A DNA stretch of 64,000 nt. Origin: Nitrospinota bacterium (GTDB lineage Bacteria > UBA8248). Positions 1,223 through 58,341 of this stretch are shown in pieces (positions within the stretch are counted from its first letter, which is position 1; each line of letters starts with the position of its first letter). The stretch lies in NCBI GenBank assembly GCA_036231405.1, contig JAZAHK010000003.1, positions 160,001 through 224,000 of the forward strand. The letters are read 5' to 3'. The translations under genes were made by a program, and so were the position numbers. The notes beneath the pieces are model-generated. The model ran no database searches. It was not told where the DNA came from and was given only the letters and a program-made list of their open reading frames with translations.

Positions 1223-1771
1223 TTAATCAGAAAGACTTACGATATCTCCGTTAATTTCTAATGTGCTGTCGATATCTATCGGATTTTTTAACGTCCACTC
1301 CGCAAAACAACCACCCTTTGCATTTTTAGCGAGTTTCGTAATTTCTTCGAGAGAAGCATCAGTATCAATCGACAAAAAAGAACGAAAACCCGTACAACCA
1401 CTTTCCACCGTACCTTTTAGAACAGATCCACGGAGAAAAAAATCATATTCAATTCTACATTTCGCTTTTTTGAAAGATATTTTCATCATGTGCGCGTACC
1501 GCGCAACTTGTGTTAAAAGTCAAAACCCAACTCCAAGAGCAAAATAATTTAACGGTTGTGGATACTCTCCATCACCACCCAATCTTGCCGGTTCATCGCA
1601 ATAAACCTCAAAATCTCCACTCTTTCCAATTTTCAACTGTCCTTTCCCTTCTATCGTTTCTACTTCTGCCACTATTGTATTCATATATCCTTGAGGTGGA
1701 TGCTCAGGTTGATCAATAACTCTCTCTCCCGGAATACTACTTTGCTCTGATGCAGTCGTAGGTTTAACCAT
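1223..1771 (-). CDS. OsmC/Ohr-like selenoprotein (Sec84), 182 aa
   Basis: ORFs 1520-1771 and 1223-1489 are in one frame, joined by TGA (1520-1522) plus LLTQVARYAH; DEP..LGG...P.P motif, TGA at the first catalytic Cys position, second Cys in GGCFAE; AGGAGG RBS. Confidence 0.85.
1491..1505 (-). promoter_or_regulatory. Putative SECIS hairpin of the OsmC-like gene
   Basis: TGCGCG-GTA-CGCGCA perfect 6-bp GC-rich stem starting 14 nt after the TGA. Confidence 0.7.
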
Positions 1772-1812
1772 ATAACCTCCTTGTTTTTAAAAGATTTACA
1801 AAAAACTTCCCT

Positions 1813-2301
1813 TTAATTTTTCCTTCTGAATTTTCTCCATTTCCATGGGGCTATAGAATCACTCCTACTCCAAACCCCTATCTTTTTTGCTCTTGCATCT
1901 GACTCTGCACCTTTTAAAGCAAGATCATGTCTTGCATATTTTTTATACCACCGACAAAAACCTTCAGAAACAAGCTTTAAACCAAGGTCAATATCTCCTT
2001 CGACAAAAACTCTTCCCACCATTCTTCCATAACGGTCATATCCCTTGTTCTCAACAATTATCTTTTTGTTAGAGATTAATTCCTTGGCCCTCTTTTTTGC
2101 ATATATTCCGCCTGGCTGCTTAATCTCAGGACAATCAATTCCATACAATCTAATTTTGATCTTTTTAAAATTTTTGTTAATGTGAATGGTATCCCCGTCT
2201 GGAACATGCAACACATATGCAGATGTAGGCTCACAAAAAATAAAGGTTGAAGGAAAACAAAAGAAAATCAATACAATAAGAATAAATATTTTTTTCATCA
2301 T
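1813..2301 (-). CDS. Thermonuclease (SNase-like) family protein with signal peptide
   Basis: DGDTI, IRLYGIDCPE, DRYGR motifs. Confidence 0.9.
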   Translation of the reverse strand: MMKKIFILIVLIFFCFPSTFIFCEPTSAYVLHVPDGDTIHINKNFKKIKIRLYGIDCPEIKQPGGIYAKKRAKELISNKKIIVENKGYDRYGRMVGRVFVEGDIDLGLKLVSEGFCRWYKKYARHDLALKGAESDARAKKIGVWSRSDSIAPWKWRKFRRKN

Positions 2302-2473
2302 ATCTCCCCACAAATAGAAAAGATTCAAAAACTAATCTTTATATAAATATTAAATACCTCACTCAAACTAAAAAGAAAAGAGCCCGAGTAGGGGAAAAAT
2401 TGACAAAAAAATTATGTCAGGTATTCTGTGAAATAGTTATTGTAGACACATTAAATAATTACAGGAGGAAGTC

Positions 2474-2959
2474 ATGAAATTGTATAAGTTCACTTTTTTG
2501 ATTTTTTTATCCCTTACTTTCATAGGAAATTACTTCATTGCCGAATCTACATTCGCTCATAAAAGAACCAAAAAATACAATAAAAAACATTGGAAAAAGG
2601 GGATCCCTCGTAAAATGCTTTTTGATCGCGTGCTATTACACAGGATCAGATTAGGTCTTAATAAATCTCAAATCTCAAAATTAGAAAATATAAAAACTAA
2701 TTACATAAAAAATAGGTATATGAATAGAGCAAAACTACGAATCAACGGTGTAGATTTAAAAATGGCAATACGCGCAGAGTCTATTAATATGAAAGTAATT
2801 GAAAAACTAGTAAAAAAAATGACGTCACAAAGGGAAACAATGTGGCTGTCCGCTATTAGCGCCATTGCAAAAACGAAAACGATTTTAACTAACAAACAAT
2901 TAGAAAAAATGAAAAAGATTAGGCACTCTAGAATGATGAGAAGAAAATCTCGTAGGTAA
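2474..2959 (+). CDS. Secreted Spy/CpxP-like helical protein
   Basis: Signal peptide; LGLNKSQ and ILTNKQ (LTxxQ-like) motifs; AGGAGG RBS. Confidence 0.6.
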   Translation: MKLYKFTFLIFLSLTFIGNYFIAESTFAHKRTKKYNKKHWKKGIPRKMLFDRVLLHRIRLGLNKSQISKLENIKTNYIKNRYMNRAKLRINGVDLKMAIRAESINMKVIEKLVKKMTSQRETMWLSAISAIAKTKTILTNKQLEKMKKIRHSRMMRRKSRR

Positions 2960-43023: not shown

Positions 43024-43314
43024 CTATTTCTTTTTTAAAGAACCTCCATAACCTTCAGCAACTAGAGCATCTATCATTTTTTTTACATTTATTTTCTTTT
43101 CATTAAAATCGACCACGGCCTCTTTCAGCTGAAAAGATACTCTTGCCTTTTTTACTCCATCGAGTTCTTCCAGAACTCTTCGAACCGTTACTGGTCATGA
43201 AGAAGGTCAGGTCATCCCCGTAATATTTAAAATAAGTTCAGCAGCAAAAAGTGAAACACTCATAGCGAAAGTGACGAAAATAAAAGTGAGATAAAATGGA
43301 AGTTTTTTCAACAT
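43024..43314 (-). CDS. Exported MerP/HMA-domain protein with two in-frame TGA codons (GMT-U-PSS-U), 96 aa; absent from the ORF track
   Basis: MLKKLPFYLTFIFVTFAMSVSLFAAELILNITGMT-U-PSS-U-PVTVRRVLEELDGVKKARVSFQLKEAVVDFNEKKINVKKMIDALVAEGYGGSLKKK; TGA at 43207-43209 and 43195-43197. Confidence 0.85.
43162..43178 (-). promoter_or_regulatory. Putative SECIS hairpin of the HMA gene
   Basis: GAGTTCT-GGA-AGAACTC perfect 7-bp stem starting 16 nt after the second TGA. Confidence 0.7.
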
Positions 43315-43376
43315 TAATTAATCAAACCTTTCAAATTAAAAATGAATAATTTTACTAAAGTTAGAAATCATTCCGA

Positions 43377-48884: not shown

Positions 48885-48961
48885 TGGTGGGCAGCGTGGG
48901 AATCGAACCCACAACCTACGGATTAAGAGTCCGTTGCTCTGCCTGGTTGAGCTAGCTGCCC
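48885..48961 (-). tRNA. tRNA-Lys(CTT)
   Basis: GGGCAGC/GCTGCCC acceptor stem, ACGGA-CTCTTAA-TCCGT anticodon arm, GTTCGA T-loop, encoded CCA. Confidence 0.95.
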
Positions 48962-57986: not shown

Positions 57987-58063
57987 TGGTACGCCCGGTA
58001 GGAGTCGAACCTACAACCTTCGGATCCGAAGTCCGACGCTCTATCCAATTGAGCTACGGGCGC
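57987..58063 (-). tRNA. tRNA-Arg(TCG)
   Basis: GCGCCCG acceptor stem, TCGGA-CTTCGGA-TCCGA anticodon arm, CCA. Confidence 0.95.
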
Positions 58064-58091
58064 ACAAAACAAATTTAAATCGTCACATAAG

Positions 58092-58168
58092 TGGGGTGAG
58101 TGAGGGGATTTGAACCCCCGACCTCCGGGGCCACAACCCGGCGCTCTAACCACTGAGCTACACCCACC
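58092..58168 (-). tRNA. tRNA-His(GTG)
   Basis: G-1 and C discriminator, CCGGG-TTGTGGC-CCCGG anticodon arm, CCA. Confidence 0.95.
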
Positions 58169-58264
58169 ACAAAGAAGTCTGAAAGTCCCAAGAATGCTAC
58201 CACCAAAAACATTAATGGAGAAATAAAAATATCTAAAAATTATAGTTAAACTCCATCAATTTTA

Positions 58265-58341
<77 letters not shown>

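Follow-up and report, generated by a model that had tools for sequence, protein, structure and literature searches.

Selenoproteins that carry selenocysteine (Sec, U) at both metal-ligand positions of an HMA domain are already catalogued. NCBIfam holds a model named ‘UxxU_metal_bind’, metal-binding (seleno)protein (NF041115), and passages of two reviews list a UxxU metal-binding family with the UxxU motif and two Sec residues (PMC9312934, PMC13188914). Two Sec-containing ‘MerP’ sequences are also listed in the Global Ocean Sampling (GOS) survey (PMC2398784), and the main text of Zhang and Gladyshev (2007) has no passage on a UxxU ‘mercuric reductase’ family. Here we describe a gene at 43024..43314, minus strand, of a 64,000-nucleotide stretch (the window) of contig JAZAHK010000003.1 from a Nitrospinota bacterium (assembly GCA_036231405.1), whose product would be a MerP-like HMA protein with two Sec residues separated by three positions rather than two. 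A preliminary description of this locus knew of no double-Sec form with that spacing. A double-Sec HMA protein as such cannot be called new, given NF041115 and the review listings; the three-residue form fared better, since a full-text literature search for ‘UxxxU’ returned no selenoprotein paper and the form is undescribed there. The kind of protein is thus known, and the new part is the subfamily with U-P-x-x-U-P spacing together with its stand-alone marine form.

A two-TGA frame and the protein it encodes

The coding sequence comprises 96 codons plus a TAG stop, running from an ATG at 43314-43312 to the TAG at 43026-43024, and when TGA is translated as U it is full length in three genomes of the same genus. 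Under translation table 11 no open reading frame (ORF) of at least 40 amino acids lies on either strand between 42901 and 43376, so the gap looks empty and gene callers miss the gene or, in other cases, store Trp at the TGAs. The frame hidden in this gap had been reported in the preliminary description without its strand, and we confirmed it on the minus strand; a plus-strand reading of 43024..43314 was rejected because it contains many stops. The two TGA codons, TGA1 at 43209-43207 (U36) and TGA2 at 43197-43195 (U40), lie 12 nt apart in the motif GMT-U36-PSS-U40-P. The protein opens with MLKK, a hydrophobic stretch and SLFA/AE, continues as LILNITGMT-U36-PSS-U40-PVTVRRVLEELDGV and ends in GYGGSLKKK before the TAG.

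Comparison with HMA models and structures places both TGAs at the metal site. With C substituted for U, the protein matched the Pfam HMA model PF00403 over residues 29-89 (43048..43230, minus strand) at 39.4 bits (E 7.7e-10, cut-off 24.8), and in alignments with solved HMA domains U36 and U40 fall on the first and second metal-ligand cysteines, with one extra residue in between. The HMA-type pattern seen earlier, with TGA at both ligand positions, is thereby upheld; the canonical GMxCxxC loop is departed from, as both ligand codons are TGA and the spacing is three residues. An AlphaFold2 model of residues 25-96, built from 11 aligned UxxxU sequences, had a mean predicted local distance difference test (pLDDT) value of 94.4 and a beta-alpha-beta-beta-alpha-beta order, with U36 falling in the first loop and the first turn of helix 1 containing U40. 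In Foldseek the best Protein Data Bank (PDB) match was MerP of Cupriavidus metallidurans (1osd; template-modelling (TM) score 0.93, 38% identity), with the Tn21-type MerP 1afi at 40% identity and CopZ and ATPase HMA domains next; of the 55 PDB matches at E ≤ 0.001, all that were listed are HMA domains. MerP chains were also the best single-domain PDB matches by sequence (E 4.4e-13 and 7e-13).

The first 24 codons (43243..43314, minus strand) are predicted, from the sequence as read, to form a signal-peptide-like N-terminus, and we infer Sec-type protein export with cleavage after A24. This N-terminus is conserved: an alignment sets SLFA/AE over ‘SAHA/AE’ of a relative in the phylum (G006), and the match to the MerP model TIGR02052 starts at residue 14 of the protein (profile position 12). 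Upstream of the gene, TTTGAAAGG is retained in same-genus loci (visible as ‘*FER’), and a candidate ribosome-binding site, GAAAGG, read from the sequence, lies 12 nt 5′ of the ATG (43327..43332, minus strand).

Conservation extends across both TGA codons. They are retained in all three other genomes of the genus, in frames of 95–96 codons with 76–82% protein identity, a recurrence beyond chance or assembly error, so the TGA/TGA pair is not unique to this assembly, as the preliminary description had asked to see. The ratio of nonsynonymous to synonymous substitution rates (dN/dS), over six genome pairs, was 0.059–0.180 3′ of TGA2, where synonymous divergence (dS) was 0.37–0.83, and 0.08–0.34 5′ of TGA1; over the whole coding sequence it was 0.065–0.167 among congeners, with dS up to 0.94. 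The purifying selection downstream of the TGAs for which that description called is therefore present. A search for related loci with the single protein returned six, namely three same-genus metagenome-assembled genomes (MAGs) and three unrelated or ordinary Cys forms. Both TGA codons are covered, without a differing letter, by contigs of four public runs in four studies; one of these runs may be the source sample, and two, with contigs of equal size, may be one data set filed twice.

Close relatives are also found in protein databases under another guise. Eight of them (P0002-P0009) are stored with W at TGA positions, seven as W..W, presumably through gene calling on short contigs under a table in which TGA is Trp. 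The remaining one, P0007 (91% identity, on a single 571-nt contig), is W..C and is, as its sequence reads, a natural Sec/Cys exchange at the second ligand. More broadly, 37 distinct HMA motif instances from relatives’ loci divide, at the same columns, into 15 Sec forms with in-frame UGA (11 Ux3U, 3 Ux2U, 1 Ux2C) and 22 Cys forms (Cx2C), and the first ligand codon is TGA in every one of the 15 Sec-form domains examined.

The genome holds the machinery to read such codons: selD (334.7 bits), selB (391.8), selA (568.6) and tRNA-Sec (selC, 75 bits) all exceed their curated cut-offs, which answers the call for Sec machinery made in the preliminary description. The selD gene (G000:C3:154791-155753, locus L001), about 4.2 kb before the first base of the window, itself contains one in-frame TGA, and its product is, judged by that codon, a Sec-containing selenophosphate synthetase. 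Of the 30 tRNAs that ARAGORN found in the assembly, one is a tRNA-SeC(UCA) and another an ordinary tRNA-Cys (GCA, 74 nt). Within the window, a tRNA cluster (Arg-TCG, His-GTG, Arg-TCT) lies at 57987-58341 and a single tRNA-Lys-CTT at 48885-48961, both on the minus strand. Genome-wide reassignment of TGA (code 4 or 25) was rejected, because TGA is the stop of 254 of the 1300 ORFs of at least 250 amino acids.

Two alternatives bear on whether the gene encodes selenocysteine at all. That the locus is an HMA pseudogene in decay, disrupted by two nonsense mutations, or else a frame arising by chance, would explain why table 11 calls no ORF here and why a simple scan of the minus strand found no sigma-70-like promoter and no terminator. 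It would leave unexplained the persistence of both TGAs and the full frame in three of three congeners at dS up to 0.94 and dN/dS of 0.06–0.17, as well as the occurrence of U-P-x-x-U-P with its hairpin in 37 metagenome contigs spanning G+C fractions (GC) of 0.32–0.71; we consider this reading effectively refuted, with next to no probability left to it. Alternatively, one or both UGAs might be read as Cys by a SECIS-dependent tRNA(ReC)/SelC*-type tRNA, giving a mature protein that is partly or wholly a Cys form. Passages of PMC13582414 report such tRNAs at higher frequency where genomes have UxxU motifs and note that this may be how one or both UGAs are decoded; in addition, the assembly is 92% complete and yielded only 30 tRNAs. 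Set against this are the single tRNA-SeC (UCA) and ordinary tRNA-Cys, the lack of a second selC-like gene among the 30 ARAGORN tRNAs of the 92% complete assembly, and the presence of selA and selD, which together make Cys decoding very improbable. On these sequence comparisons we are nearly certain that the gene encodes a genuine two-Sec selenoprotein.

A SECIS-like hairpin proposed to serve both UGA codons

Folding and covariation point to a hairpin resembling a selenocysteine insertion sequence (SECIS) at 43162..43178 on the minus strand, with a 7-bp stem GAGUUCU/AGAACUC (43178-43172 / 43168-43162) closed by a GGA loop (43171-43169). The stem starts after 16 nt from UGA2, and the loop start lies +23 nt from UGA2 and +35 nt from UGA1. 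The bacterial SECIS model set out in part of PMC13188914 has a stem of 4–16 bp, a UGA-to-loop distance of 16–37 nt and a minimum free energy (MFE) of ≤ −7.5 kcal/mol; loop (GGA), stem (7 bp) and distance (23/35 nt) agree with it for both UGAs. The hairpin occurs in the MFE fold, and a 40-nt window around it folds at −9.6 kcal/mol (z −3.6 versus shuffles).

The hairpin tracks selenocysteine among relatives. At this position 14 of the 15 Sec forms have a stem of 6 bp or more whose loop begins with G, versus 2 of the 22 Cys forms (Mann–Whitney p 1.6e-5, the relatives not being independent, as the 15 Sec forms represent about eight different hairpin sequences), and in 13 of the 14 hairpin-bearing Sec forms the loop starts exactly at +23. 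RNAalifold predicted the 7-bp helix with compensatory changes in four pairs, while pair counting gave 93% of cells paired and five pairs altered on both sides; the covariation score was reached by none of 500 shuffles and dropped sharply when the partner strand was slid. These compensatory changes alter residues, from GUU..GAA (V..E) in this genus to GCC..GGG (A..G) in GC-rich relatives, which argues for an RNA constraint beyond the protein motif ALExLxGV. At least six of the seven hairpin pairs are present in 36 of the 37 metagenome copies, the search pattern itself having fixed five hairpin positions. Rfam returned nothing relevant, only two chance-level matches (E 0.46 and 0.75). A second small helix at UGA2 (GACC..GGUU), 77% paired and free of compensatory change, is not claimed as part of the SECIS.

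UxxU and UxxxU forms alike have the hairpin at the same point with respect to their second UGA. We infer that one hairpin serves both UGAs: the single downstream element would bring SelB with Sec-tRNA(Sec) to each, and because the stem starts 16 nt past UGA2 it should stay folded during decoding of either codon. The natural series of UxxC, UxxU, UxxxU and U..C (the last within one genus) shares this one fixed hairpin, and makes the family a convenient system in which to ask how a single bacterial SECIS serves two nearby UGAs.

Distribution, gene context and the probable metal

The three-residue spacing is common in this phylum and in metagenomes. In a set of 51 genomes of the phylum, 15 carry a two-TGA HMA domain, 12 of them as U-P-x-x-U-P and three as UxxU, with none among the 23 genomes of the phylum’s largest genus. 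A DNA pattern with 25 fixed bases recovered 37 metagenome contigs, all with complete HMA domains bearing U-P-x-x-U-P, in 19 motif variants across the GC range given above; three belong to this genus. A tree of the 37 domains from relatives’ loci put the 15 Sec forms on one side of a branch (support 93/94) and left the order of UxxU and UxxxU within them unsettled. Across the HMA superfamily at large, three-residue spacing does not go hand in hand with Sec: the 150 best database representatives held 92 Cx3C versus 546 Cx2C motifs; these came from a profile search of 1.84 billion representatives that was dominated by multi-repeat HMA proteins and so gives no census of orthologues. Many multi-repeat HMA proteins among P0015-P0158 carry a Cys-only Cx3C, as ‘GMMCQKNCG’ or ‘GMSCAKNCA’.

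Leaders vary within the family. Many GC-rich metagenomic copies (among L088-L121) have twin-arginine-type leaders, e.g. RRR-x-F/V-L, and this genus has a Lys-Lys Sec-type leader; going by these N-termini, the export route may differ within the family. In seven same-family genomes (G004, G005, G007, G011, G012, G018, G019) a MerT-like membrane part is fused to the U-P-x-x-U-P HMA domain or precedes it, and other metagenomic U-P-x-x-U-P copies are likewise fused to MerT-like membrane parts.

Beyond the genus, members of the family adjoin mercury-type genes. All four phylum relatives examined outside the genus have mer-type neighbours: a zf_CopZ protein and a MerR regulator in G006, MerF in G042, ArsR and a pyridine-nucleotide oxidoreductase in G038, and in G011 a mer-like operon (locus L033, G011:C16, about 1477-2647, minus strand) that has a tandem pair of U-P-F-T-U-P HMA domains and the order zf_CopZ, a MerT part before the first HMA domain, a second HMA gene and a 448-amino-acid MerA-like pyridine-nucleotide disulfide oxidoreductase. 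The same holds for three of six metagenome loci examined, with MerC, MerE and a redoxin beside L095, MerC and an oxidoreductase beside L104, and an oxidoreductase and AhpC/redoxin beside L113. No mer gene was found within 1.5 kb of L119 or L121. In L100 the HMA gene is flanked by DUF3179 genes, and DUF3179 is a selenoprotein family in its own right according to passages of the reviews (PMC9312934, PMC13188914).

Around the window gene the setting is different in kind. Its neighbours are a TIM-barrel protein, PBP5 and sigma-54, and same-genus loci share a xylose-isomerase-like TIM-barrel gene upstream and a PBP5-type carboxypeptidase and a Cys/Met pyridoxal phosphate (PLP) enzyme downstream; neighbour annotation agrees with the earlier observation that no mer or cop genes are adjacent. 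The genome (2.09 Mb, GC 0.37, 92% complete, the scope of all negatives given for it here) has the window gene as its only detected HMA domain.

We consider it highly probable that this is an exported MerP-like HMA protein with two Sec residues served by one SECIS, acting as a periplasmic binder of soft metals, probably Hg(II). The N-terminal signal peptide would export the protein, and the selenolates of U36 and U40 would hold a soft metal ion in a linear Se–metal–Se site in the periplasm. Hg and similar metals should be held far more tightly by two selenolates than by two thiolates. Hg(II) is our best guess for the metal, by analogy, because relatives in the family adjoin mer-type genes (MerT fusion, MerC, MerE, MerF, MerA-like reductase, MerR). 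Since no partner was found in this genus, the protein probably works alone, and might then act as a periplasmic trap or buffer that binds its metal very tightly; it may be the only dedicated soft-metal binder of the cell, in a small oceanic genome in which no other HMA, mer or CopA-type gene was found.

Several observations weigh against this interpretation. At the level of decoding, the stem-loop alone folds at −6.2 kcal/mol, weaker than the −7.5 of the SECIS model, with only the 40-nt window reaching −9.6; over 96 nt the predicted fold does not beat shuffled sequences (z −0.22); and the hairpin is embedded in the conserved coding motif ‘ALExLxGV’, so that the protein accounts for some of its conservation. 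For UXXU hydrogenases, PMC13582414 raises the reading of both UGAs from one SECIS as a possibility and reports no experiment on it. No RNA run is listed among the public sequencing runs holding the stretch. At the level of function, the search of the genome found no MerT, no homologues of the MerT, MerF, zf_CopZ or MerR of relatives, no CopA-type (P1B-type) ATPase and no match to HgcA, and the oxidoreductase of relatives is matched only by a pyridine-nucleotide oxidoreductase of about 30% identity. With no mer partner found, the Hg assignment is borrowed from relatives, and two Sec residues three apart in an oxidising periplasm could form a diselenide. A link to Hg methylation (hgcA) was rejected for this assembly on the same HgcA result.

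Two other functions fit the same gene and the same Sec decoding. The metal could be Cu(I) (or Ag/Cd), with the protein serving as a periplasmic CopZ/CusF-like buffer or a chaperone for cuproenzymes: CopZ models score 49.3 and 43.2 bits, near the 64.1 of MerP, the HMA domains of CopZ and ATPases resemble the model closely in structure, no mer gene was detected in the genome, and the gene sits in the chromosome amid conserved housekeeping neighbours rather than in a resistance island. Yet no CopA-type ATPase or other HMA protein was found that could receive the copper, among single-domain proteins MerP matches best, in fold as in identity (38–40%), and elsewhere the family adjoins MerT, MerC, MerE, MerF and MerA-like genes, not cop, so that we regard a copper role as unlikely, though the stronger of the functional alternatives. 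The other would have U36 and U40 form a redox-active diselenide/diselenol couple, making the protein a periplasmic oxidoreductase on an HMA scaffold and not a metal binder. Predicted bacterial selenoproteins are mostly redox proteins with UxxC/CxxU motifs, according to parts of the reviews (PMC9312934, PMC13188914), redoxin/AhpC-type genes flank two of the six metagenome copies (L095, L113), and the changed spacing departs from the canonical metal loop; but the fold is HMA, not thioredoxin-like, the Sec positions are exactly the ligand positions of the metal site, and the neighbours are more often mer transporters and MerA-like reductases. We judge a redox role improbable. Thus, of the metal scavenging and diselenide redox chemistry that the preliminary description had put forward by inference, the gene context of relatives favours, by analogy, handling of the Hg type.

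More tentatively, as a reading that we hold to be less likely than not, we propose that the U-P-x-x-U-P HMA proteins form a distinct, widespread and uncatalogued subfamily in which the extra loop residue and the two prolines would adapt the site to the two larger selenolates, the UGAs would be decoded from one hairpin at 35/23 nt, and the protein of this streamlined marine genus would be a periplasmic diselenolate trap for trace Hg or other soft metals that needs no mer or cop partner. Such a trap would represent a selenium-based metal defence in oceanic relatives of nitrite oxidisers.

Comparison with known families

We place the window protein in a group with U-P-x-x-U-P spacing, the probable sister of the UxxU metal-binding selenoproteins already catalogued. 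NF041115 is its best-scoring NCBIfam model, at 66.8 bits, and describes an HMA domain with Sec likewise at both ligand positions; it differs in having two residues between them, where the window protein has three (U-P-S-S-U-P), and the score falls below the cut-off of 95 bits. This is general: none of the 21 UxxxU forms tested reached that cut-off (58.7–74.7 bits in the phylum, 64.9–90.7 in 14 of 15 metagenomic forms, and no match at E ≤ 1e-15 for the other, L100), whereas the UxxU forms scored 94.6, 98.1 and 99.3 bits, with two of the three passing. A whole selenoprotein subfamily is thereby invisible in marine and other genomes.

MerP (TIGR02052; 1osd, 1afi) has a cleavable signal peptide and a single HMA domain; the window protein likewise has a single HMA domain, behind an N-terminus that resembles such a peptide. 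MerP has Cys at both ligands where the window protein has Sec and one extra loop residue, and the 64.1 bits obtained with TIGR02052 are below its cut-off of 92.55. Unlike MerP, which lies in a mer operon, the window gene lies outside one, and no merT, merA or merR was found in the genome. The arrangement of MerT-HMA fusion selenoproteins (NF045683, ‘MerT/CopZ fusion-like heavy metal transport selenoprotein’; MerTP, NF033556) recurs in the same-family genomes named above, where the U-P-x-x-U-P HMA domain goes with a MerT-like membrane part; the window protein has no MerT part and instead a predicted signal peptide before the HMA domain, so that its match to NF045683 covers the HMA part only (44.6 bits, cut-off 375). 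The fused relative G018 is also below that cut-off, at 38.2 bits.

A parallel in decoding comes from outside the HMA proteins. As portrayed in parts of PMC13582414, UXXU-type Group 4 [NiFeSe] hydrogenases likewise have two close UGAs at metal ligands, followed by just one SECIS-like hairpin whose apical loop contains G, but they are an unrelated protein family with a different metal site and two-residue spacing.

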